Shown: piece by piece, positions 2,213-40,540 of the stretch | Layout: each line of letters begins with the position of its first letter | Numbering within the stretch: position 1 is the first letter of the stretch | Virus genome (UHGV): UHGV-0121884 | Source: a virus | Length of the DNA stretch: 40,758 nt | Direction: 5' to 3' (one strand) | Position numbers and translations under genes: made by a program | Notes under the pieces: model-generated | What the model saw: only the letters and a program-made list of their open reading frames with translations | Databases searched by the model: none | Told to the model about the DNA's origin: nothing

Positions 2213-2706
2213 TTAACCTCCTGCGGCGGTTCCGGTAGAGGCATCCAGTACAAGGCGTTCCCTAACCACGATAAAGTGCCGTCGCTCAACTCCACGTATT
2301 CCCCTTGTACCTGTCCTGCCATATACTCGCCGTGCTTTGAATAAATTAAAATCCAATCATCTTGAGCGGGCATTCGCTCACTACAGCTTATCCAACCATC
2401 CGGAGTTACCGGATAGTTGCCCGACAGCTCGTTCAACTTGTAAGTTTGGCTTACAGGTTCGGCTTCCAGTTCTGCTATGCGCTTTTTTGCTGCTTCCAGC
2501 TCAACACGCAGCCTCCCAACCGTTAGCGCAATATCCTCGTTCTCCTGGTCGCGGCGTTTTATGTATTGCTGGCTTTTATCCAGTTCATACAGCAACGTTT
2601 CTGCGTAAATATAAAGTTCCTGTTTTTCACGATCCGCAGGATCGCTGTAATGCTCCTGCATGTATTGAAATTCTTCACGCAGTGCCTGATAGTCAATCTT
2701 GCTCAC
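2209..2706 (-). CDS. DUF551 / Ea22-like protein
   Basis: C-terminal W...WMPLPEPP motif typical of DUF551; coiled-coil centre; start set at GTG 2706 (AGGAGG 6 nt upstream) rather than ORF-track GTG 2727. Confidence 0.5.
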
Positions 2707-2870
2707 TGGTCGCCTCCTTTGCGCCACATCGCATTCAGATGTTTGTTTTGATTCACTGATGGAAACGAGTTTCGCTTAAGTAATTCCTCTCTCGATGGCA
2801 TTGGCTTTACGCGTTGGCGAATAATCATTTCTGCTGGAAGAATGCCGGGATTGTATGCAAGTCCTCTCAT
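2703..2870 (-). CDS. small hypothetical protein (55 aa)
   Basis: ATG overlaps stop of upstream gene (ATGA); below ORF-track size cutoff; fills otherwise empty gap. Confidence 0.3.
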
Positions 2871-3148
2871 GATTTACTCTCCACGAACTGGTCAATAGCC
2901 ATGCTAAGTGACATACCTAAAGTTTCGATATGCTGCTGAATATCCTGTAGCGTCTGCGCCTGAGATAACAGGATTTCACGGTTGCATAACTCTTTGACCA
3001 GATGCTCAAACTTGCTGTAATAACCGATACGGCTTAGTGTTTCTTTCCCTGCATTCTCACCTTCTTTGATAATTCCTCTTTCATTAAGAATCAGGTCGTG
3101 TTTTGTTCCAGTAATAACGTATTTACCGAGGTCGATGTTTAGCTTCAT
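2867..3148 (-). CDS. hypothetical protein (93 aa)
   Basis: ORF in early-left operon orientation, tightly packed with neighbours. Confidence 0.4.
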
Positions 3149-3164
3149 TGTTAATTACTCCATG

Positions 3165-3479
3165 TTAATTTATTTGTATGCCTGCTCTTTTTTCATCGAG
3201 TTTTTTTAGCTTGTATCGCATAGCCCTTACCGAATAAATTGAGCGGCAGGTTGCAATTGCTATTTCTTCTGCGGAGAACTTACCGAAAAGTGATACTTCG
3301 GCTCTTGTCCATCGTCTTCCACGAAGTCGGCTAACAATGTCAGCGCCAATCCTTGTTGCTTTCGCCATTACTGCTTTTTCAGTCCTTTCCAGTTTTTCAG
3401 CGATAACTCCAACTGGCATTGTCGCCGCTACTTCGCGCAAGAAATCGACTTCCCATTTCTCCCATGGAGTCTTTTTCAT
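3165..3479 (-). CDS. hypothetical protein with two HTH-like repeats
   Basis: 104 aa; internal duplication W..E..FL..A...IAEKL / W..AEV.LFGKFSAEEIA. Confidence 0.4.
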   Translation of the reverse strand: MKKTPWEKWEVDFLREVAATMPVGVIAEKLERTEKAVMAKATRIGADIVSRLRGRRWTRAEVSLFGKFSAEEIAIATCRSIYSVRAMRYKLKKLDEKRAGIQIN

Positions 3480-3490
3480 AGGCGATACCG

Positions 3491-3973
3491 TTATTTGATA
3501 AGAAGTGAAGGTTTCCCAACTTTGAGTTGAGCGCCGGGGATATTTATTCCTGCTTTTAGTTGGTGTTTGATTGCCAGTTTGTCGGCTTTAATTGTCGTTT
3601 CAAACTCAACGTATTCAGGAGGAAGGGCGCTTGAGTCGATGATTTCTACAGTTTCTGACGGTTTGCGGATTGTTACCTGGTGAATACCTGCTCGAATCTT
3701 TTTCTTGCCAACCATTTCAAGCGATGACGCTATATACGCCATAATGCTGTCAATCTTATTTTGAATTACTGCGGCTCGCTCATTTAGTGACTGTGCCTCT
3801 TCCTTGAGGCGTTCAGCATAACCAGATTCATTTTTAATAATGGCAAGAAGTTGCTCTATTTTATCGGTAAATTCTCCTTCCATGCCTTCTATTGTGTCAG
3901 CAATCATCTCTGGCTCTAAATCTGAATCTATCAGCTTTGCGTATTCATTGGCAATTTCATACAGTTTGCTCAC
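3491..3973 (-). CDS. coiled-coil protein, Gp157-like, RecT-associated
   Basis: Immediately downstream of recT; start set at GTG 3973 with GGAGG 6 nt upstream (ORF track uses TTG 3979); family call is by resemblance only. Confidence 0.4.
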   Translation of the reverse strand: MSKLYEIANEYAKLIDSDLEPEMIADTIEGMEGEFTDKIEQLLAIIKNESGYAERLKEEAQSLNERAAVIQNKIDSIMAYIASSLEMVGKKKIRAGIHQVTIRKPSETVEIIDSSALPPEYVEFETTIKADKLAIKHQLKAGINIPGAQLKVGKPSLLIK

Positions 3974-4859
3974 TGGCAACCTCCAGTTTCGCTTTGCATT
4001 CTGCGTAAATGGCTTGTACGTTCTGCTGCAATTTCATTCCAGATGTCAGGCGATATGCTTCTGCAAAATATCTCTTCAAATCATCCATGTTTTCAGCCTG
4101 AGCCATTTCATCACAAAGAAGTTGTGCTTTTTCCATTATTTCCTGCTGGCGTTTCCGTTCATCTTCGCGGATATCTTCCTCTGATTTGTGCGGCATAACC
4201 GGTTCCTGATGCATACCCTCATCTTCGTTAAGCAGGTGAATGGCATTATCCAGTCGCTGGGCTTTAGGCCAGTATTTGCTGGCGCGTTTAACTATTGTTT
4301 TACGCGCCATCTCTTCCCAGAATGTCTTCCACGGTCCATTCTTTGCCTTGCTCGTTGCTTCCACAGCTTTAATTTCTGCCAGACTCATTTCTTCAGTCAG
4401 GTAGTCACCATCTGCTGTTTTAACCGTGCAATAACCACCAACAATAGAGCCTCGCTCACCAAATGCGTTGTATTTGTGGGTTGGCGCTGAATCAAGGCCG
4501 TTTGATTCATAGGTGTCGTTTGAGTACACCAGTTTACATTGCCCCCACTTAATTGATCCTGTCGACTGTGCAAGGTGAAGTAATCCCATATAGCTGATAT
4601 CAAGGCAAACCATGCCGTCGCGCGGAACTAGATAAGCAAGTTTGCTGGCCGGGTTTAATGTGATGCCGATCGCCGCAACATTGATGATGGCGTTCTGTGC
4701 GCTGGTTGGATTTGCCAGTGCCGTTTTAGCCAGGTAATCATTTTTCTGGAAATACTGAATTGCAAACTGGCTTTCCTTAGCCCATGTCACCGTCTGTTCA
4801 GTCAATGCTCCGCAGAATAACTGCTCCTGCTGTTTAACGAATTCAACGATATTGCTCAT
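3957..4859 (-). CDS. recT: RecT/Redbeta-family single-strand annealing recombinase
   Basis: 300 aa; conserved C-terminal block GYCTVKTADGDY..EMSLAEI......GPWKTFWEEMARKTIVKRASKYWP typical of RecT family. Confidence 0.75.
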   Translation of the reverse strand: MSNIVEFVKQQEQLFCGALTEQTVTWAKESQFAIQYFQKNDYLAKTALANPTSAQNAIINVAAIGITLNPASKLAYLVPRDGMVCLDISYMGLLHLAQSTGSIKWGQCKLVYSNDTYESNGLDSAPTHKYNAFGERGSIVGGYCTVKTADGDYLTEEMSLAEIKAVEATSKAKNGPWKTFWEEMARKTIVKRASKYWPKAQRLDNAIHLLNEDEGMHQEPVMPHKSEEDIREDERKRQQEIMEKAQLLCDEMAQAENMDDLKRYFAEAYRLTSGMKLQQNVQAIYAECKAKLEVASEQTV

Positions 4860-5167
4860 GCTGCTTCTCCATAAATGTGTCTGCGTTTGAATATTGCGAA
4901 GGCATATTCAGCCTTAACTCTTTCGGTTATTGCATCCCAGAACCATTCAGCGGCTTTTTCCTGATAGTCACAGTCATCATCTTCCAGCCAGTCGATAGCG
5001 TCCTTAGTGTGTTCATCTGGCTTATATGAGCGAAGCATTTCGCTTATTGGGTCGCAGCGTTTGCAGAGGCGATCAACTTCACTGTTGATTCGTTCGTAAT
5101 CTTCATCAGTAAAACTTGCGATGATTTGCGATATTTCACGCTTATCATTCAGAGTCAGAATCATCAT
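4856..5167 (-). CDS. hypothetical acidic protein (103 aa)
   Basis: ORF upstream of and overlapping recT start by 4 nt. Confidence 0.4.
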   Translation of the reverse strand: MMILTLNDKREISQIIASFTDEDYERINSEVDRLCKRCDPISEMLRSYKPDEHTKDAIDWLEDDDCDYQEKAAEWFWDAITERVKAEYAFAIFKRRHIYGEAA

Positions 5168-7807: not shown

Positions 7808-8467
7808 TTAACTAAATGTCTCTTCAGGCCACTGGCTGGCGATAACTTTCCCTACTACGGAACAGCTATCATTGCATGGGATCATTGGATATTGCGGGTT
7901 TAGTGGTTGTAGGAACACCTGACCGCTATCCCTGATCAGTTTCTTGAAGGTAAACTCGTCACCACCAAGTCTGGCTATGCAGAAATCACCTGGCTCAACA
8001 GTCTGCTCAGGGTCAACGAGAATTAACATCCCGTCAGGAAAGCTTGGCTTGGATCCTGTTGGTGCGGTCATGGAATTACCTTCAACTTCAAGCCAAAACG
8101 CACAATCACTGGCTTTTTTGGTTGTGCTGACCCATCTCTCCGCATCGCCTTTGGTAAAGGTTCTAAGCTCAGGCGAGAACATCCCGGCCTGAACATGAGA
8201 AAAAACAGGGTACTCATATTGTTTTTTTAACGGGGCAGATGAGTATTCGCCAACAGGTGAAAATGTACCGTCGTGGTTGAATGAGACGTTATCAATACCA
8301 AGGTATTTAAACACCACACCAATCTCGTCAAGAGATGGATGACGAGATCCGCGCAACCAGTGACCAATTCCACCCTGCGTCATACCAAGCTCTTCAGCTA
8401 ACTTCTCTTGAGTTATGCCGAGTTCTTTCATTCTGGATCTAGCCAGTTCATACCATTTCATTTTCAT
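7808..8467 (-). CDS. c2: CI/C2-type prophage repressor (HTH + S24 LexA-like autopeptidase)
   Basis: [25 protein letters not shown]; Ala-Gly cleavage site in [11 protein letters not shown]; S24 motifs GNSMTAP and FKKL; start taken at MKMKW (8467) rather than ORF-track upstream start. Confidence 0.8.
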
Positions 8468-8578
8468 ATCCTTATTATTACGCTCTGTACTAAAACCATC
8501 CATGCACAAGATGTATTTTTTGTTTGCATTCCAAAAGTACATATCGTATTATTGTTTCATGGTTACTATGGAGGGCAT

Positions 8579-32015: not shown

Positions 32016-32366
32016 CTAATTTTTATTCTTTGATCTCGTCCACAGGGAAAGAAGAGCAATGGCAAGACAGGAAACAGAGAATAGATAACCTACCTCATAT
32101 GGTGCGCCAAAAAAATTAGCTATTGATACGGGCAAAAAAGCCGAAGCGATCAGAATTGAAAGGCAAAAAATAAGCCCAGTAACATAGTTTATTAAACTCT
32201 TAAATGAGAAACGTTTTGCTTGATTTACGGTCTCAGCGAGTGATCGCTTAACGATGGATAAAAGCAAATAGATGGCGACAGTAGCTAATGCCCCTTTCCA
32301 CCAGTCTGGATATAGTTTTGCGACAATCAGCCCAAGGAAAACCATGATGACAGACTGAGTATTCAC
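32016..32366 (-). CDS. small integral membrane protein (about 4 TM), immI-region accessory
   Basis: GTG start with AGGAGG 5 nt upstream; hydrophobic helices throughout; occupies the position where P22 carries sieA. Confidence 0.45.
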   Translation of the reverse strand: MNTQSVIMVFLGLIVAKLYPDWWKGALATVAIYLLLSIVKRSLAETVNQAKRFSFKSLINYVTGLIFCLSILIASAFLPVSIANFFGAPYEVGYLFSVSCLAIALLSLWTRSKNKN

Positions 32367-32450: not shown

Positions 32451-33311
32451 TTACTTGTCTGGTGAGTGTTTATAACGGGCCTGTGAAAGGCTGTAGTTAG
32501 CAAATTTCTCAAGGCGCTCAGCAATTTCATCTAGTCGCTTAAGACGTTCGTCAAAGGGTGTATTCTTGTCAAATTTTGCATTTGACCAAAAATCTTGGCT
32601 AACCTTGTGTGCTTCTTCAACCAGTTTCTCTACTTCGCTATGCGGCATTGGAGAGATAAGTTTTTCCCTCTTTATTCGGAACTGAGAATGAATAGCCACG
32701 CCAACAACCTCGATAAAATCAGGTTGGAACATAGGGTATAAAGGGTTAAGTGGCTTAAGGTAGATTTGGCGCTGATCCAGTATAAGCTGCTTAAATGTAG
32801 CCTCAGAATCATCATTCAGCACACACATCACAAAGTCACCAGAAACAGCCTCTAGCGATGAATCGAAAGTTACGATTGTTCCAGGAGGAAAGCTAATCCC
32901 ATCACCGGAAGACATGGAGTCTCCTTGTATTTCAACGGCAAAACAGTATTCATTGGCTTCAGGAGGGGCTGGAATAAAGTCCTTTATAGCAGCAGTCTTT
33001 AGTAAATCATCTAGCGATTCAAATCTTGCCTGTACGTGTGTTAGCACAGGAATCTCGCGCACAGTAACAGTTCTCTTGACACTGCTAACGTCAGGGCCAT
33101 CTCCTTTCCCTTGCGTAAGCCATTCAGTGGTAGTTCCCAATGCAGCCGCAAGGTTTTGAAGTGCCTTTTCTCTTGGCTTGGCTTCCCCGCCCTCGTAAGC
33201 AGCGATCTGTCTGGATACCACGCCTACTTTCTTAGCAAGCTCGGATTGAGTCAAACCGATGGAGTTGCGCGCTATGGCAACTCGTTTAGAAAAAGAATCA
33301 TCAAAACTCAT
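32451..33311 (-). CDS. CI/LexA-like HTH-S24 protein with Ala-Arg at the cleavage position and a C-terminal extension
   Basis: 286 aa; XRE HTH (IGLTQSELAKKVGVVSRQIAAYE), S24 motifs GDSMS and TFKQL; region PVLTHVQARFESL aligns to C2 [13 protein letters not shown] but has AR instead of AG; about 70 extra helical residues at C-terminus. Confidence 0.6.
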   Translation of the reverse strand: MSFDDSFSKRVAIARNSIGLTQSELAKKVGVVSRQIAAYEGGEAKPREKALQNLAAALGTTTEWLTQGKGDGPDVSSVKRTVTVREIPVLTHVQARFESLDDLLKTAAIKDFIPAPPEANEYCFAVEIQGDSMSSGDGISFPPGTIVTFDSSLEAVSGDFVMCVLNDDSEATFKQLILDQRQIYLKPLNPLYPMFQPDFIEVVGVAIHSQFRIKREKLISPMPHSEVEKLVEEAHKVSQDFWSNAKFDKNTPFDERLKRLDEIAERLEKFANYSLSQARYKHSPDK

Positions 33312-33408
33312 ATTTGCACCTTAAAAAATCATTGACTCAATATTAGTCTGGTACTAACCTAATGTTGAAGATTGAGCAATTGAATAACAAAACTACATGA
33401 GGTGAATA

Positions 33409-33582
33409 ATGGAACAGAAGAAAAAAGATATCAAGCCTATCTCCTACCGCCCAAGTGCTGAAGTGCGTGAGTTTTTGGAAAGTAACGCAGCTAAAAGCTA
33501 CCGCTCGACTCAGGGGATGATCGATTTCTTTATGGCTAAGGTCATGGATATGGAGAAGAAAGGTGAAATTATCATCCATTAA
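33409..33582 (+). CDS. small ribbon-helix-helix-like protein (57 aa)
   Basis: ATG 33409 with GAGGTG upstream; PISYRPSAEVREFLESNA resembles Arc/Mnt-type beta-strand/helix; divergent from the HTH-S24 gene. Confidence 0.35.
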   Translation: MEQKKKDIKPISYRPSAEVREFLESNAAKSYRSTQGMIDFFMAKVMDMEKKGEIIIH

Positions 33583-34294
33583 AAACGTTGAAGCCCAACG
33601 GTGGCTAGACCGTCAGGCTTCGGTATCGAACAAATCCTACGACGGAAATATCGATATGAATATTGTAGCAAAATCAGATTACAACTTCCAAGGATTCACC
33701 TTTAACCCAGTAACAGAGGGCGGGTCTATCTGGTTTACCTCCACCGAACTAGCTAAGGCTCTCGGCTATAAAAAAACTGATGCCATCAGCCAAATTTATG
33801 CCCGTAATGCTGATGAGTTTTCCGACTCAATGTCATTGACCCTCAATATGAGTGTCAACGGGATAAACAATAGCTTACGTAACAAATCGGTCAGAGTTTA
33901 CTCACTCCGAGGCGCTCACTTGGTGGCGATGTTTGCTTCTACGCCCAAGGCCAAAGAGTTCCGCCGTTGGGTGCTGGATATTTTGGATCGTGAAGCCACG
34001 GATTCACCGATCGCCAAACAGTTCACAGATGATGAGTTAATCAGCCTTTGCTATCTCCAGCTCTGGATGGAAAAGAGCCAGCGGGTTAGCCAGCAACTTT
34101 ACCCGGCAATGAAACAGGCTAAGTCAGAATACGCAGGGATGCTATACGACATCGCCCACGACATTCGTTATATGACTGTGGAAACCAAGAAGATCCTGCT
34201 TCGTGAAGTACAGGAACTGGATAACAGCAATATTGTCGTGAAGCATGCGCAGCCAATGTTGGCAATGCTTCGCGGTGAGGAATGGATTCACTGA
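33563..34294 (+). CDS. Bro-N domain antirepressor-like protein
   Basis: IWFTSTELAKALGYKKTDAISQIYARN...VRVYSLRGAHLVAMFASTPKAKEFRRWV fits Bro-N; start uncertain (GTG 33563 or ATG 33656). Confidence 0.5.
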   Translation: MKLSSIKNVEAQRWLDRQASVSNKSYDGNIDMNIVAKSDYNFQGFTFNPVTEGGSIWFTSTELAKALGYKKTDAISQIYARNADEFSDSMSLTLNMSVNGINNSLRNKSVRVYSLRGAHLVAMFASTPKAKEFRRWVLDILDREATDSPIAKQFTDDELISLCYLQLWMEKSQRVSQQLYPAMKQAKSEYAGMLYDIAHDIRYMTVETKKILLREVQELDNSNIVVKHAQPMLAMLRGEEWIH

Positions 34295-34378
34295 TTGACG
34301 CACAGGACGGTGCAAAAAGAAAAGCCGACAGTTACGAGCTACCGGCTTTCATTGAAACTTGTCATAAGGGTCCAACCA

Positions 34379-35152
34379 ATGACTTTATTAAATTTAGCAG
34401 TTCATGAGCCAAATGTCGATCCCCAGCCGCTTCCAGTGATTGAATGGGAGGGTTTACGTGTTGTTACGACTGAAACGCTGGCTTCAGGTTATGGTACGGA
34501 TGAGGCTAACATTCGGAAAAACCTGTCACGCAATGCTGGACGCTTCATTGAAGGAATTCACATCTTCACTATTAAAGGCCAAGAGTTGAAGAATTTGCGA
34601 GTGACTAATAGTCACGCACAAATTTCGAACAAAGCTCGTTCAATTGTTTTGTGGACGGAGAAGGGCGCAGCGCGGATGTCGAAAATTGTCGATACAGACG
34701 AAGCATGGTCTTTCTTCGAACGGTTGGAAAATGCTTACTTCCGTCCCTTGGTAAAAAGCATCCTACCGCAGACATACGAGCAGGCTCTGGAAGATTTACT
34801 TCTAAAGGTCAAAGAGAATCGGCTTCTTGAGCAACAGCGCGACAGAGCGGTAAAAGAAAAGTTGTGGATTGCAGCAAAACGCGAAGCTACAGCAATGGCT
34901 ACCGCATCAGCAGCCGTCCGCGCCAAAAACAAATTAGCTGAACGGGTAGGGGAAGGAAAGAACTACGCCGCCATTATCCCGGTAGAAAAGAAGCTGGGGC
35001 AGAAATTCAAATGGCAGCCTCTTCGCAAGTGGTGCCGGGAGAATGACGTCACCCCACATGATGTCAACGACCCACGCTTTGGCTCAGTTAAGTCATGGCC
35101 TCGCGATGCTTGGCTTGCTGTGTATGGCGTAGATCTTCGAAAACTTTTTTAA
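34379..35152 (+). CDS. ORF6N/KilAC-type antirepressor-like protein
   Basis: N-terminal LPVIEWEGLRVVTTETLASGYGTDEANIRKNLSRNAGRFIEGIHIF fits ORF6N domain; start set at ATG 34379 (ORF track uses TTG 34295). Confidence 0.5.
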   Translation: MTLLNLAVHEPNVDPQPLPVIEWEGLRVVTTETLASGYGTDEANIRKNLSRNAGRFIEGIHIFTIKGQELKNLRVTNSHAQISNKARSIVLWTEKGAARMSKIVDTDEAWSFFERLENAYFRPLVKSILPQTYEQALEDLLLKVKENRLLEQQRDRAVKEKLWIAAKREATAMATASAAVRAKNKLAERVGEGKNYAAIIPVEKKLGQKFKWQPLRKWCRENDVTPHDVNDPRFGSVKSWPRDAWLAVYGVDLRKLF

Positions 35153-35177
35153 CCAAAAGGATAGATTATTGCTAATC

Positions 35178-35203
35178 AAACCCGCTTAATCGCGGGTTTT
35201 TTA
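35178..35203. terminator. bidirectional rho-independent terminator between convergent genes
   Basis: AAACCCGC-TTAATC-GCGGGTTT flanked by A/T runs on both sides. Confidence 0.5.
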
Positions 35204-35227
35204 TAAGGAGTATTCATGATTTACCCA

Positions 35228-35764
35228 TCAAACAACCCACCAGTTTGCCTGATTGGATGCCAGCCTTGCGGTTTTTATGGAATTAATTATGCCATGCTCA
35301 AGAGCCTTGTTAGCATCCAAAATGGTCGAGTCTGCTATCAGGGATGCCCACCTAATATGGGTTCCGATGTCGATATTGAACGTCTCAACGAAGCGATCAA
35401 GATCGTTATCGAGGCATTTCCCGTACTCTCTCAATCTGGCATGGTCGGCGGCTGGGGAGGCAAAGCACCATAATAGAGGATGTAACAGGAATCTTGATAA
35501 TGGGTTTGCGAAACGTTCTGAGCCAGCCAGGAAAACGATATTAGCTATGGATTCAACATTGCTTATGTTGTGAGTTCTAACGGTAACAGGGAGTGACTTA
35601 AGAAAGTTATACGCAGTAAAGCCAGCGGCAGTTTCCCCTCCCTGACTTGATATATGGATATTTAATTCAGTTGCGCCTTGAGATAATGCGGTGAGACAGT
35701 GGTTCTGAAGTTGCCCAACAGTGGCAGTGTTAACGGGGCATAAGAAATGAATTGTGTGCAGCAT
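35228..35764 (-). CDS. ClpP-fold serine protease homolog (178 aa), translationally coupled to mnt
   Basis: Aligns to ClpP core: ISSQGGETAAGFTAYNFL vs INSPGGVITAGMSIYDTM; ESIANIVFLAGSERFANPLSRFLLHPL vs [29 protein letters not shown] (candidate catalytic Ser and His retained); start ATG overlaps mnt stop (TAATG). Confidence 0.6.
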   Translation of the reverse strand: MLHTIHFLCPVNTATVGQLQNHCLTALSQGATELNIHISSQGGETAAGFTAYNFLKSLPVTVRTHNISNVESIANIVFLAGSERFANPLSRFLLHPLLWCFASPAADHARLREYGKCLDNDLDRFVETFNIDIGTHIRWASLIADSTILDANKALEHGIINSIKTARLASNQANWWVV

Positions 35765-36018
35765 TATTTATCATCCTTGCCATAAATCTTTTTAAGTGTC
35801 TCAAACACAACGGCCTTGAACTGCTCTGCTTGCTGATCAGCCAAGCGTTCAGCTTCGTCTCGATAGCCTGCAATCGGTGATGGCTTTGAGAGAGCATCCT
35901 GAACGATTTGTAATAACTCAGAGTTCATTGACCTTCCGTTAGCCTCTGCTCTTAATTTCAATTTTTCTCTTACTTCCAAAGGCATACGGAAGTTAAAGTG
36001 CGGATCGTTTCTAGCCAT
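35764..36018 (-). CDS. mnt: Mnt repressor (ribbon-helix-helix)
   Basis: 84 aa; MARNDPHFNFRMPLEVREKLKLRAEANGRSMNSELLQIVQDALSKPSP closely matches P22 Mnt. Confidence 0.85.
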   Translation of the reverse strand: MARNDPHFNFRMPLEVREKLKLRAEANGRSMNSELLQIVQDALSKPSPIAGYRDEAERLADQQAEQFKAVVFETLKKIYGKDDK

Positions 36019-36045
36019 GCCATCACCCCAAGTTAGTGTATTGAC

Positions 36046-36066
36046 ATGATAGAAGCACTCTACTAT
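36046..36066. promoter_or_regulatory. arc operator (Oarc) overlapping Pant
   Basis: ATGATAGAAGCACTCTACTAT, the P22 Arc operator; TTGACA at 36041-36046 serves as -35. Confidence 0.6.
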
Positions 36067-36074
36067 ATTCTCAA

Positions 36075-36093
36075 TAGGTCCACGGTGGACCTA
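36075..36093. promoter_or_regulatory. mnt operator (Omnt)
   Basis: Perfect palindrome TAGGTCCACGGTGGACCTA, the P22 Mnt operator. Confidence 0.6.
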
Positions 36094-36108
36094 TATTGTG
36101 AGGTAAAT

Positions 36109-36267
36109 ATGAAAGGAATGAGCAAAATGCCGCAGTTCAATTTGCGGTGGCCTAAAGAAGTATTGGATTTGGTGCGTAAGGTGGCGGAAGAGAACGGGCG
36201 ATCTGTTAACTCTGAGATTTACAAGCGAGTGTTGGACAGCCTGAAGAGAGAGGGGATAACGGTATGA
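36109..36267 (+). CDS. arc: Arc repressor (ribbon-helix-helix)
   Basis: MKGMSKMPQFNLRWPKEVLDLVRKVAEENGRSVNSEIYKRVLDSLKREGITV closely matches P22 Arc; ORF-track upstream extension judged non-coding. Confidence 0.85.
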   Translation: MKGMSKMPQFNLRWPKEVLDLVRKVAEENGRSVNSEIYKRVLDSLKREGITV

Positions 36268-36485
36268 GGTTTATTGAGGTTGATGAGATTGGCTATGAGA
36301 ATGCACTTGGTAGAGGTAAATCTTTAGTTAACATTGATGGCATTGAATCGATAAGGAGTGGTGAATTTACGGAGATCAGAATGATGTCAGGCGGAATCAT
36401 TCCTTGCCGTGATTCAGTAGAGTCAATCAAATCAAAAATGAGTGGTCAGTGGCTTTATAGCTACAGTGACTTACAAAAACAGTGA
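36264..36485 (+). CDS. hypothetical protein (73 aa) between arc and ant
   Basis: ATG overlaps arc stop (ATGA); followed by hairpin GAAGCCC..GGGCTTC (36485-36520). Confidence 0.4.
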   Translation: MRFIEVDEIGYENALGRGKSLVNIDGIESIRSGEFTEIRMMSGGIIPCRDSVESIKSKMSGQWLYSYSDLQKQ

Positions 36486-36548
36486 AGCCCCAACTGCGGT
36501 AACAGTCAGGGCTTCGGTATCGTAAAACCACGCATAGGAATTAACGAC

Positions 36549-37472
36549 ATGACGAGTGTAGCAATTGCAGAACATACAATCAACGTTCCATTCCACGGAA
36601 CAAATCTCTTTTTGGTCAGCATTAACAATGAACCTTACGTTCCTATGAAACCCGTTGTAGAAGGCATGGGTATGGTTTGGGCTGCTCAATTTGTTAAATT
36701 AAAACAGAGATTTGTCAAAGGTATTTCGGAAATCGAAATACCTTCTGCTGGCGGTAAACAGTTAATGATATGCCTTGCCTTTCGTAAGTTTGCGGCTTGG
36801 CTTTCAAGCATTCAGCCAAACAAAGTCCGTCCTGAAATCCGCGACAAGGTAATCCAGTATCAGGAAGAGTGTGACGATGTGCTATACGAGTACTGGACTA
36901 AAGGTCATGTAGTTAACCCACGCAAAGCTAAAAAGGCGTTGCCGGGTAAAATCACCACTGAACAGCAGGAAGCCATTAAACAACTCGTCATGAGTCGCGG
37001 TCAGTCTCTGCCAAAAGAAAAACAGGCTAAGGCGATGATCACCATGTGGTCCTCACTGAAATCCCATTTTGGATGTTCGTACAAAGAAATCAGTGAGGAG
37101 CAGTTCACCGAAGCACTGTCACTTGCAGCTCGAGTTCCACTTGAAGGTGAGTTCATTGGCAAACAAGAAGAGTTACCAGCGCCAAAACTGGATATTAACT
37201 TCCCGATTTCATGGTTTGCTGAAAATGCACCTTACGCCATTATCAGGCAGCAATGCGGTGATACTGTTGCTCTTGACCGCAGCGCACTCGTTGAATGCAG
37301 TCCGGCGTATAAACTAATCAATATTCTGACAAAAGCGGGGTATGACGTTTCAGCAGTAAGAGCTGAACTAAAAGCACTTCGCCATTTAATGGCTGAGCAA
37401 AGCTGGGCACTTAAAGAGATAGCTTCATTCGCAGCGATACGTGATAGAGCGTGCCACTCAATAAAACTTTAA
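36549..37472 (+). CDS. ant: antirepressor Ant
   Basis: 307 aa downstream of arc as in P22 immI; N-terminal AntA-like region NVPFHGTNLFLVSINNEPYVPMKPVVEGMGMVW. Confidence 0.65.
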   Translation: MTSVAIAEHTINVPFHGTNLFLVSINNEPYVPMKPVVEGMGMVWAAQFVKLKQRFVKGISEIEIPSAGGKQLMICLAFRKFAAWLSSIQPNKVRPEIRDKVIQYQEECDDVLYEYWTKGHVVNPRKAKKALPGKITTEQQEAIKQLVMSRGQSLPKEKQAKAMITMWSSLKSHFGCSYKEISEEQFTEALSLAARVPLEGEFIGKQEELPAPKLDINFPISWFAENAPYAIIRQQCGDTVALDRSALVECSPAYKLINILTKAGYDVSAVRAELKALRHLMAEQSWALKEIASFAAIRDRACHSIKL

Positions 37473-37512
37473 CTACCTGCACGAAAAGTGTAGGTCAATA
37501 ACCAACGCAACG

Positions 37513-37537
37513 ACCCAGCTTCGGCTGGGTTTTTTTA
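37513..37537 (+). terminator. rho-independent terminator after ant
   Basis: ACCCAGC-TTCG-GCTGGGT followed by T7. Confidence 0.6.
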
Positions 37538-37594: not shown

Positions 37595-40540
37595 ATGACA
37601 GACATTACAGCCAATGTGATTGTATCGATGCCTTCGCAACTCTTCACTATGGCGCGTTCTTTTAAAGCCGTAGCTAATGGCAAAATTTATATCGGTAAAA
37701 TTGATACTGACCCTGTAAATCCTGAAAACCAGATTCAGGCTTATGTGGAGAACGAAGACGGTTCTCACGTTCCTGTTTCTCAACCAATCATCATTAACGC
37801 TGCTGGATATCCTGTATATAACGGACAGATTGCCAAATTCGTTACCGTGCAAGGCCATTCTATGGCTGTTTATGATGCGTATGGTGCGCAGCAGTTCTAT
37901 TTTCCTAATGTGCTGAAGTATGACCCAGATCAACTACGGCAGCAATTAGAAGACCCAGATGGAGCGAATAAATACCCAAAACTTCAGATAGCAAGATGGA
38001 GAGACAGTTATGATGTAAGAGGTTGGGGGGCTATTGGTGATGGTGTTCATGATGATACATCAGCTCTATCAGAATTACTTTCTGTTGCAACAGGTGGTGA
38101 AAAGATAGATGGGCGAGGGCTTACTTTTAAAGTATCAACTCTTCCAGATGTCAGTCGATTTAAAAATGCTCGTTTTTTATTTGAGAGAATACCGGGTCAG
38201 CCTCTTTTTTATGCTTCTGAAGATTTTATCCAGGGAGAGTTATTTAAAATTACAGATACACCGTGGTACAACGCCTGGACGCAGGATAAAACGTTTGTAT
38301 ATGACAATGTCATCTATGCGCCTTTTATGGCTGGAGACCGCCATGGTGTAAATAACCTCCATGTTGCATGGGTTCGCTCAGGAGATGACGGGAAGACCTG
38401 GACAACGCCGGAATGGCTTACAGATTTACATGAAAACTATCCCACAGTTAACTATCACTGCATGAGTATGGGGGTTGTCAGAAATCGCCTTTTTGCTGTA
38501 ATTGAGACGCGGACCGTGAGAGGAAATAAACTGCAGGTTGCAGAGTTGTGGGATCGCCCAATGAGTCGCAGCCTTCGCGTTTATGGTGGTATAACGAAAG
38601 CAGCAAATCAGCAAGTCGCTTATATTCGCATTACTGATCACGGATTATTTGCTGGTGATTTTGTCAACTTCTCAAACTCTGGTGTTACAGATGTTACCGG
38701 GAATATGACGGTGACTACTGTTATTGATAAAAATACCTTTACAGTTACGACGCAAAATACCCAGGATGTGGATCAGAATAACGAGGGTAGATACTGGAGT
38801 TTTGGCACATCATTTCACTCGTCACCATGGAGAAAAACCAGTCTTGGAACTATTCCTTCTTTTGTTGACGGAAGCACTCCTGTTACTGAGATTCACAGTT
38901 TTGCGACGATTAGCGATAACAGTTTTGCTGTTGGCTACCATAATGGTGATATTGGTCCACGCGAGCTTGGGATACTCTATTTCTCTGATGCTTTCGGTTC
39001 TCCTGGTAGCTTTGTTCGCAGACGCATACCTGCAGAATATGAGGCGAATGCATCTGAGCCATGTGTAAAATATTATGATGGCATTCTGTATCTGACGACC
39101 AGGGGGACATTAAGTACTCAACCCGGTAGTTCATTGCACAGAAGCTCTGATTTAGGTACATCATGGAATTCTCTTCGCTTCCCAAATAATGTTCATCACT
39201 CAAACCTTCCTTTTGCCAAAGTTGGCGATGAGCTGGTTATTTTTGGCAGTGAGCGCGCATTTGGTGAGTGGGAAGGAGGAGAACCTGATAACCGTTATGC
39301 AGGAAATTATCCAAGAACATTTATGACCAGAGTTAACGTCAATGAGTGGAGTCTGGATAATGTAGAGTGGGTTAATGTTACTGATCAGATTTATCAGGGC
39401 GGAATAGTTAACTCTGCGGTTGGTGTTGGTTCAGTTTGTATCAAAGACAACTGGCTGTACTACATTTTCGGTGGGGAAGATTTTCTAAACCCATGGAGCA
39501 TAGGGGATAACAACAGAAAATATCCTTATGTTCACGATGGTCACCCGGCTGATTTGTATTGTTTCAGGGTGAAAATTAAACAGGAAGAATTTGTTTCAAG
39601 GGATTTTGTCTACGGAGCCACTCCTAACAGAACGCTTCCTACTTTTATGTCGACGTCAGGCGTGAGGACGGTTCCTGTACCCGTTGATTTCACAGATGAT
39701 GTTGCCGTCCAGTCACTGACTGTCCATGCAGGTACATCAGGACAAGTTCGCGCGGAAGTCAAACTTGAGGGTAATTACGCCATTATTGCGAAGAAAGTAC
39801 CGTCTGATGATGTTACCGCTCAGAGATTAATCGTTAGCGGCGGTGAAACAACGTCTTCAGCAGATGGTGCAATGATAACGTTGCATGGTTCCGGAAGCAG
39901 TACTCCACGTCGCGCGGTATATAACGCACTCGAACATCTTTTTGAGAACGGAGATGTTAAACCTTATCTTGATAATGTAAATGCTCTTGGTGGTCCGGGA
40001 AACAGGTTCTCGACAGTTTATCTTGGCTCCAATCCTGTGGTTACCAGTGACGGAACATTAAAGACAGAGCCGGTCTCTCCTGACGAAGCATTGCTGGATG
40101 CCTGGGGTGACGTCAGGTATATCGCTTATAAATGGCTGAACGCTGTCGCTATAAAGGGGGAAGAAGGGGCGAGGATACATCATGGTGTAATCGCGCAGCA
40201 ACTTCGTGATGTTCTTATTTCTCACGGACTCATGGAAGAAGAAAGCACAACATGCCGCTATGCCTTTCTTTGCTATGACGATTATCCCGCAGTATATGAT
40301 GACGTCATTACTGGCCAAAGGGAAATGCCGCTGACTGATAATGACGGGAGCATCATTGTTGATGAGGATGATAATCCAGTGATGGTAATAGAAGACATCA
40401 TTGAGCGCGTTGAAATAACGCCAGCAGGATCTAGATGGGGGGTCAGACCTGATCTCTTATTCTATATCGAGGCGGCATGGCAGCGCAGAGAAATAGAAAG
40501 AATAAAAGCTAGGTTAGACTTAATAGAAGGGAAGCACTAA
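37595..40540 (+). CDS. tailspike: P22-type head-binding domain fused to endosialidase (endo-N-acetylneuraminidase) with C-terminal intramolecular chaperone domain
   Basis: 981 aa; N-terminus [57 protein letters not shown] matches P22 gp9 head-binding domain; C-terminal 164 aa (from Ser818, motif SDGTLK) matches K1-phage endosialidase chaperone domain; GGAG SD. Confidence 0.85.

Follow-up and report, generated by a model that had tools for sequence, protein, structure and literature searches.

The UHGV virus genome UHGV-0121884 was analyzed as one strand, 5' to 3', over its full length of 40,758 nucleotides (hereafter the window), with the focus on positions 33312-37472. The 40.8-kb window represents an E. 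coli prophage of P22-like type, a lambdoid podovirus, and its early region encodes a lambda-type CI (7808-8542) with the canonical VQAGMF cleavage site and Ser-Lys dyad, together with SieB, Dam and Q. The flagged region lies between the DNA-ejection genes on one side and the gene for a 981-amino-acid (aa) tailspike on the other, a slot which was named the 'ant moron' by Villafane et al. 2008 and is in rapid flux, with ten types among sixteen genomes (PMC2629481). It had been described preliminarily as an expanded immI region with three antirepressor-family genes. Three genes of the antirepressor ('Bro-network') families were indeed identified by their domains (P22_AR_N; Bro-N with P22_AR_C; ORF6N), and none further among ten early-region open reading frames (ORFs) of the window. 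The genes are arranged as two cassettes side by side, module 1 and module 2.

Genes and boundaries of the two modules

Module 1 (35764-37472) is an ordinary P22 immI cassette, with mnt, arc, sar and ant in the same order as in P22. The maintenance repressor gene mnt (35764-36018, minus strand) matched Pfam Arc (94.5 bits) and Repressor_Mnt (46.1 bits), arc (36109-36267, plus strand; RefSeq coordinates) matched Pfam Arc (90.5 bits), and ant (36549-37472, plus strand; 307 aa) matched P22_AR_N (136 bits). The overlapping divergent promoters Pant and Pmnt lie between mnt and arc (36019-36108), with consensus matches of 11/12 and 10/12 in the promoter scan. This control region was 98% identical to that of P22 across the annotated Oarc and Omnt, and the attribution of P22-type operators to the mnt-arc-ant triad is therefore correct. 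The canonical sar antisense RNA (sar1; 36481-36547, minus strand) scored 77.7 bits with Rfam RF00262 (gathering score 43), folded at -29.8 kcal/mol (z = -4.6) and ended 2 nt before the ant ATG. The cassette differs from that of P22 in an extra 73-aa ORF between arc and sar and in the C-terminus of Ant: the two Ant proteins were 40% identical over residues 1-200 (BLASTP 4e-42), and the C-terminal third differs. A terminator was found by scan 3' of ant, before the tailspike gene (37512-37531, plus strand).

Module 2 begins on the minus strand with a 286-aa lambda-CI-like repressor (32451-33311; Pfam HTH_3 and Peptidase_S24), referred to here as the HTH-S24 protein for its helix-turn-helix and S24 domains. 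Its AlphaFold2 model (pLDDT 82.4) comprised a five-helix HTH, an S24 beta-domain and two extra C-terminal helices. With Foldseek, the model matched lambda repressor (E = 1.5e-13); the C-terminal domain was 35-40% identical, also to entries of lambda repressor on a RecA filament, LexA was a further fold match, and the N-terminal domain (an HTH of 434/P22-C2 type) superposed on P22 C2 and 434 repressor. In an alignment with LexA and the lambda-type CI of the window, the Ser-Lys dyad was kept (GDSM, TFKQL), as in most of 102 homologues. The scissile site is Ala95-Arg96 and not Ala-Gly, with HVQARF aligned to the HVQAGMF of the window's CI. Across the 12 full-length homologues of at least 59% identity, the P1' residue was R, K, C or N and never Gly; the canonical Ala-Gly occurred mainly in distant relatives of 196-265 aa, plus a few proteins about 55-60% identical. 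In a sister S24 subfamily that shares the gene neighbourhood, Ala stands in place of the catalytic Ser (GEAM). The classic LexA mutant that cannot be cleaved is G85D (PDB entry 1jhf, titled 'LEXA G85D MUTANT'). The long form of the HTH-S24 protein carries a C-terminal extension of about 75 residues (210-286), predicted as two long helices (pLDDT 57-80), which could serve oligomerisation or partner binding; a short-form subfamily of 201-233 aa has no such extension.

The gene for the HTH-S24 protein is divergent from the operon on the plus strand, and a control region of 97 bp separates them (33312-33408). Rightward, P_right is formed by TTGACT (33332-33337) and TAACCT (33355-33360) at a spacing of 17 bp. 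Leftward, a candidate P_left on the minus strand is formed by TTCAAC (33372-33367) and TAATAT (33348-33343) at 18 bp. When eight upstream regions of the family of the first plus-strand gene were compared by eye, a -35 of TTGAC(A/T) was conserved in the P_right position, followed at 17 bp by a -10-like hexamer. Two 16-nt arms in inverted orientation (33329-33344 and 33368-33383) include the perfect palindrome ATTGACTCAAT, and from their sequence they are candidate operators.

The first gene of the operon (33409-33582, plus strand) encodes a 57-aa protein of RHH-like (ribbon-helix-helix) predicted topology, which belongs to phrog_10182 (function unknown). Its family comprised 74 sequence clusters, nearly all members being 57 aa long, and the named organisms were all Enterobacterales. 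The AlphaFold2 model (pLDDT 84.7) consisted of an extended strand and helices at 17-29 and 34-50; with Foldseek, about 20 of 29 matches were RHH proteins (including Arc, CopG, ParD, NikR and MatP), none of them significant for so short a chain. When the family was compared with Arc/Mnt by hhalign, the alignment was in register (E ~1e-3). The protein had no Pfam family at E ≤ 0.01 and no Pfam Arc match.

The next gene encodes a putative second antirepressor of 212 aa (33656-34294, plus strand) with two Pfam domains, Bro-N (PF02498; 42.1 bits, gathering 25.6) and P22_AR_C (PF10548; 46.2 bits, gathering 22.4). It matched phrog_245, 'anti-repressor Ant' (6e-46), and its C-terminal domain was 33% identical to P22 Ant residues 213-272 (BLASTP 5e-11). 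In the window, the two P22 Ant domains are thus found on two differently regulated proteins, Ant and the Bro-N protein. From the alignment of the leaders, the start is most likely the ATG at 33656 and not the GTG at 33563. The last gene (34379-35152, plus strand; start at ATG 34379 as in RefSeq, not at TTG 34295) encodes a 257-aa protein, a putative third antirepressor or regulator, with an ORF6N domain (PF10543; 71.5 bits, gathering 27.8) and matches to phrog_4936 (8e-100) and several 'anti-repressor' PHROGs. Its C-terminal 120 aa contained no domain recognised by Pfam at E ≤ 10. A KilAC/ANT domain (PF03374), which the preliminary description had assigned to this protein, was rejected, with no match in Pfam at that cut-off and none in NCBIfam; the domains assigned in the two modules (Bro-N, P22_AR_C, ORF6N, P22_AR_N, Arc, Mnt, HTH_3 and S24) all scored above the Pfam cut-offs. 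The ORF6N protein and Ant were also rejected as paralogues, no similarity being detectable. Beyond the domains shared with P22 Ant, no sequence similarity was detected among the three effectors of the window.

The operon ends at an intrinsic terminator (35178-35199, plus strand), AAACCCGC / GCGGGTTT followed by TTTTTATAA, with a fold of -14.4 kcal/mol (z = -2.5) on the plus strand. It had been called bidirectional, which is only half true because a proper U-tract is present on the plus strand only; on the minus strand, the hairpin is present and the U-tract absent. At the terminator, the mosaic segment of module 2 also has its right boundary. From partial matches in other E. coli genomes, the edges of the mosaic segment were placed at about 32,363 and 35,194 (2.8 kb), and homology with prophages lacking module 2 picks up again at about 35194. 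In both modules, every ORF, promoter, antisense unit and terminator is intact. Four complete E. coli genomes contained the flagged region at 100% identity and a fifth in nearly identical form; at least 80% of the region was matched by 5 of 5,426 complete E. coli genomes, and the tandem arrangement is accordingly rare. Each module also occurs singly in other prophages.

Antisense RNAs of module 2 and recurrence of the module

The antisense RNAs do not figure in the preliminary description. A second sar-type RNA, sar2, was identified at 33586-33654 (minus strand), where Rfam RF00262 gave 40.0 bits (E = 1.4e-5) against its gathering score of 43. It lies antisense to the stretch around the ribosome-binding site of the Bro-N gene and ends 2 nt before the ATG, and it folds into two stem-loops, the second of which is the terminator (-30.6 kcal/mol, z = -5.1). 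The leader and first codons of the Bro-N gene are homologous to those of ant (MNIVAKSD vs MTSVAIAE). The promoter scan placed Psar2 at 33662-33691 (minus strand; TTGGAA, 18 bp, TACAAT with an upstream TG), inside the Bro-N gene at codons 3-12, and Psar is annotated at the same position in P22. An equivalent of the Psar -10 (TACAAT, TACACT, TATACT, TAAACT or TAAGCT) was found at the same place in nine of the nine ant-type genes compared, which come from different phages and differ in their N-terminal domains (Bro-N, P22_AR_N, KilA-N). Because the Psar -10 (TGCTACAAT / TACACT) occupies codons 3-5 (33656-33691, 36549-36585 and loci L002-L011), the unrelated N-terminal domains all start with M-x-S/I-V/L-A. 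The shared leader and start look like a recombination joint for swaps of effector genes.

A covariance model of sar was built from the nine ant-type gene sequences, sar2 being among the training set, and scored sar2 at 79.5 bits. The authentic P22 sar, which lay outside the training set, was recovered at 46 bits, and more sar-like copies were found in Salmonella and Klebsiella loci. Covariation was assessed on an alignment of 14 distinct sar-like sequences: 96.5% of cells were paired, and compensatory changes were present in 8 of 15 pairs. None of 500 shuffles reached the observed values, and slid controls were 33-49% paired. With position, promoter, fold and covariation all as expected, sar2 was treated as a homologue of sar.

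A candidate third antisense unit, 'sar3', was proposed at 34313-34419 (minus strand) from conserved signals in the promoter and terminator scans. Its candidate promoter consists of TCGACA (34419-34414) and TGcTAAATT (-10 at 34396-34391) at 17 bp, and the predicted transcript would run over the start codon of the ORF6N gene to a terminating hairpin (34350-34320) with a T-run. The -10 and the hairpin, which co-varies, have been kept in SPN3UB, in JEP4 and in one prophage each of Salmonella and Klebsiella, with different genes following. The overall fold z was only -1.5. Searches of the unit gave no Rfam match beyond a chance-level Thr_leader and nothing with our own sar model.

To place module 2 among other genomes, eleven loci (given below by L numbers) were examined for either of the two regulators, HTH-S24 and 57-aa. 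In eleven of eleven, the genes for both lay side by side in divergent orientation, with one to three Bro-network genes after them. The S24 proteins were 49-89% identical to that of the window in long-form loci and distant in short-form loci, and the 57-aa proteins were 30-95% identical across loci. The effectors were a disrupted P22_AR_N ant in E. coli H22 (L004), P22_AR_N and P22_AR_C in Klebsiella (L005), P22_AR_N in Lonsdalea (L006/7), Bro-N/P22_AR_C and a pRha-like protein in a metagenome (L008/9), KilA-N/P22_AR_C in a second E. coli lineage (L011), Bro-N/P22_AR_C and ORF6N in Salmonella (L015/16), Bro-N/P22_AR_C and an unknown protein in a second Klebsiella lineage (L017/18), and Bro-N and KilA in phage JEP4 (L003). 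In Yersinia (L012/13), they were T5orf172, P22_AR_N and either KilA-N or pRha/ANT. In most loci searched with the covariance model, a sar-like RNA preceded the first effector gene. At the Yersinia loci (about 2368-4901), this same pair of regulators precedes three consecutive Bro-network genes, and the sar-like match precedes the second (P22_AR_N), not the first.

In most siphovirus-type (long-tailed) prophages, the module was placed with the tail genes on one side and the tape-measure gene on the other. The P22-like prophages had it in the ant-moron slot, and it was the sole immI in E. coli H22 and Salmonella (L015/16). The pair of long-form HTH-S24 and 57-aa proteins had no match in 50,697 phage records by distant blastn and tblastn. 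In the literature searched, no description was found of a cassette combining a site-degenerate HTH-S24 protein, the 57-aa protein, a sar-like RNA and Bro-network genes, nor of its stacking beside a classical immI.

Regulation, rival explanations and known systems

The same divergent layout stands upstream of antirepressor-family genes at all eleven loci, and it is therefore very likely that the second operon is controlled by the HTH-S24 protein together with the small RHH-like protein. Of the genes that the preliminary description gave for the operon (RHH, Bro-N, ORF6N), the two effectors were supported by Pfam, and the RHH assignment of the first gene is suggested by the predicted structure and a weak, in-register profile match only. 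The 57-aa protein is proposed to be the Arc analogue (autoregulator) of module 2. Since Arg stands at the scissile Gly, the sister subfamily is Ser-dead and no LexA box was found, the HTH-S24 protein is proposed to be a stable, Mnt-like maintenance repressor of the module and not an SOS sensor, a role for which the kept dyad leaves some room.

Our preferred reading, to which we give a probability of about 0.55, is that the slot holds two independent immI-type modules and that module 2 follows the logic of P22 immI with non-orthologous regulators, as a device for anti-immunity or trans-activation at the time of infection. The gene content, domain identities, sar2 homology and structure, synteny, degenerate cleavage site and mosaic boundaries of module 2 are shown by the analysis; the targets of its regulators and effectors are inferred as follows. 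In the lysogen, the HTH-S24 protein would bind the palindromic sites at the overlapping divergent promoters and keep the operon off. When phage DNA enters a cell free of repressor, P_right would fire and, by analogy with the P22 circuit, both effectors would be made briefly. The RHH-like protein would then close the promoter, and sar2 (probably 'sar3' too) would block translation of the leftover mRNA, as in P22. Going by the shared P22_AR_C domain and the family annotation, the burst of Bro-N/P22_AR_C and ORF6N proteins may render CI-type repressors inactive, in resident prophages or in related ones. Both the P22 circuit and Ant's broad specificity are well established (PMC2629481, PMC3121763), and P22 Ant inactivates the repressors of P22, L, lambda and 21 (PMC3121763); anti-immunity or cross-induction would be expected for this reason, and the activity against heterologous repressors that had been suggested for the three proteins is, by this analogy, plausible.

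Several points weigh against this reading. The -10 of P_right (TAACCT) is poor, being the weakest of the eight upstream regions compared, both P_right and P_left scored under the threshold of the automatic promoter scan, and the operators of module 2 were picked out by eye only. The RHH call leans on a predicted monomer with non-significant structural matches, and the profile evidence for the 57-aa protein is weak (Pfam RHH_5, E = 0.019; hhalign probability 20-24%); when the family profile was searched against PDB sequences, designed beta-beta-alpha peptides were the only matches, without Arc or Mnt. The Rfam score of sar2 is slightly below the gathering score. A purely structural role of the S24 domain does not account for the retained Ser-Lys dyad. 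Moreover, members of the Bro network act in other ways: AriS inhibits the SOS response via its KilAC domain (PMC9043618), and the related CapR is a DNA-binding repressor (as cited in PMC10111431).

These last examples belong to an alternative that we consider somewhat unlikely, in which both Bro-network proteins of module 2 are DNA-binding regulators or effectors directed at the host or at competitors (acting, for example, by SOS inhibition, by exclusion, or as transcription factors on satellites or other prophages) and are tightly controlled because they are toxic. Bro-N, ORF6N, KilA-N and P22_AR_N have been seen as freely shuffling DNA-binding modules (Iyer et al. 2002, as cited in PMC9043618 and PMC10111431), domain swapping in the network is rampant (PMC10111431), related operons carry very different effector sets, and the lack of similarity among the three effectors of the window would also suit it. 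Against it, the regulatory layout of module 2 copies that of the one antirepressor gene that is well studied, down to a homologous antisense RNA, and the Bro-N protein has the C-terminal domain of P22 Ant and no KilAC domain, the part through which AriS acts; the same regulators also drive an ant of P22_AR_N type in E. coli H22, Klebsiella L005 and Lonsdalea. It is very improbable, on the other hand, that the arrangement is an accidental mosaic without joint function, in which module 2 recombined into a hyper-variable slot and one module is redundant or decaying. The flux of the slot, the rarity of the tandem and the occurrence of each module alone elsewhere speak for such an accident; against it, the elements of both modules are all intact, and the region is 100% identical in four independent genomes.

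A further possibility, which we regard as quite unlikely, is cross-induction with SOS as the trigger, which the preliminary description does not name: activated RecA would cause the HTH-S24 protein to cleave itself, the operon would be derepressed, and the antirepressors would induce this and other prophages. Such a scheme would be similar to those of Gifsy, N15 and 186, except that the LexA-like sensor would be encoded by the phage. It draws on the conserved dyad of the S24 domain and on the likeness of the C-terminal domain to lambda repressor, RecA-bound entries included, and antirepressor-mediated SOS induction is well established in other systems (PMC3121763). The cleavage site speaks against it, with Arg in place of the Gly that is mutated in LexA G85D and no Gly at P1' in the twelve close full-length homologues, as does the loss of the catalytic Ser in a sister subfamily of identical synteny. 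The prophage's own CI, moreover, has the canonical Ala-Gly and needs no antirepressor for SOS induction. Control by host LexA was likewise rejected: no LexA box (CTGT-N8-ACAG) with at most one mismatch was present between 25 and 37.2 kb of the window, and the count over the whole window was below chance expectation. With neither an Ala-Gly site in the HTH-S24 protein nor a LexA box, module 2 is more likely an infection-time device than an SOS-triggered one.

Compared with P22 immI, module 2 likewise has a divergent, proposed maintenance repressor, a small regulator of predicted RHH-like topology as first gene, an effector with P22_AR_C and a homologous sar-type RNA whose promoter lies within the first codons of the effector. 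It differs in that the Mnt position is taken by a lambda-CI-like HTH-S24 protein outside the Mnt family and the Arc position by the 57-aa family without a Pfam Arc match, the N-terminal domains of the effectors are Bro-N and ORF6N instead of P22_AR_N, and there are two effectors instead of one, probably with a second antisense unit. The LexA-controlled antirepressors (Gifsy GfoA/GfhA/GftA, N15 AntC, 186 Tum) are alike in that a repressor of the LexA/S24 family holds an antirepressor gene off, and they share the idea of prophage cross-talk by trans-acting antirepressors. In module 2, however, there is no host LexA box, the repressor is phage-encoded and without Ala-Gly site, the effectors are large Bro-network proteins and not small ones of Gifsy type, and the prophage's own CI is directly cleavable. 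In P1/P7 immI (c4 antisense RNA/icd/ant) and P4 (CI RNA/eta), Bro-network genes are also under adjacent or internal small RNAs, but these are of the C4 and isrK families and act via processing from the same transcript or via transcription termination, and neither system has a pair of RHH and CI-like proteins. The sar2/Bro-N/ORF6N segment was 77% identical in DNA to Salmonella phage SPN3UB, where RHH proteins of Mnt-like and Arc-like type accompany the effectors instead. An arrangement of short-form HTH-S24, 57-aa and Bro-N genes is found in JEP4 and in the Salmonella prophage L015, and the ant-moron P22-like phages of Villafane et al. 2008 share the genomic slot.

The general theme is well known, from P22 immI, ant-moron diversity, Bro-network shuffling and RNA control of antirepressor genes; the tandem cassettes are a tidy, unsurprising case of mosaic phage evolution, and the locus extends this theme without overturning any current idea. 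It matters because antirepressors set which co-resident prophages wake together, and with them the spread of prophage-borne genes, and because large antirepressor-like proteins of the Bro network other than P22 Ant are a hardly tested field. The locus offers a compact and intact test case, with three domain architectures, each behind a safety circuit of P22 style with clear cognate regulators. The sar antisense RNA is not a peculiarity of P22 and appears as a portable element travelling with many antirepressor-type genes, and a CI-like protein with a degenerate cleavage site has been repeatedly recruited as the 'Mnt' of such circuits. A bolder version, which in our view is unlikely, makes module 2 a widespread second type of immI in prophages of Enterobacterales, with a CI-like repressor that has the dyad and lacks the site, an antisense RNA of its own for each effector, with its promoter at the start of the effector gene, also serving as a portable recombination joint, and three independently gated antirepressors giving multi-partite immunity and broad cross-induction. 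Were this true, one prophage with three such antirepressors of different specificity could trans-activate or cross-induce co-resident prophages broadly, and the dyad kept without a canonical cleavage site would hint at a non-canonical trigger or substrate.

Accessory and flanking genes

A ClpP-like protein of 178 aa is encoded between the two modules (35228-35764, minus strand; Pfam CLP_protease, 44.4 bits). Its gene is directly downstream of mnt, its start overlapping the mnt stop, and it is therefore probably expressed in the lysogen. The NCBIfam matches were all far below their cut-offs, so the protein is neither a ClpP nor a head protease of standard type; its gene seems to be cargo downstream of mnt and no part of the antirepressor circuitry. 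In related prophages, the neighbourhood of the ClpP-like gene contains a ClpX-type zinc-finger protein or a Panacea-domain protein.

The 73-aa ORF of module 1 (36264-36485, plus strand; phrog_11805, function unknown, 2.8e-53) overlaps the arc stop, precedes the sar terminator and is not in the P22 map. The JEP4 module also ends with an ORF of 73 aa; identity of the two was rejected, as they had no similarity.

Directly downstream of the HTH-S24 gene and on the same strand is an ORF of 116 aa (109 aa in RefSeq; 32016-32366, minus strand), the translation of which contains long hydrophobic stretches. It had no family match and no similarity to the Salmonella ORF in the same position; with that dissimilarity, and its place outside the mosaic boundary, it was rejected as a travelling part of module 2. 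In P22, the counterpart position, downstream of mnt, is that of sieA. At the other end of the slot, the tailspike gene (37595-40540, plus strand) matched phage CUS-3 in its upstream region and start; the CUS-3 tailspike carries the annotation K1 endosialidase.

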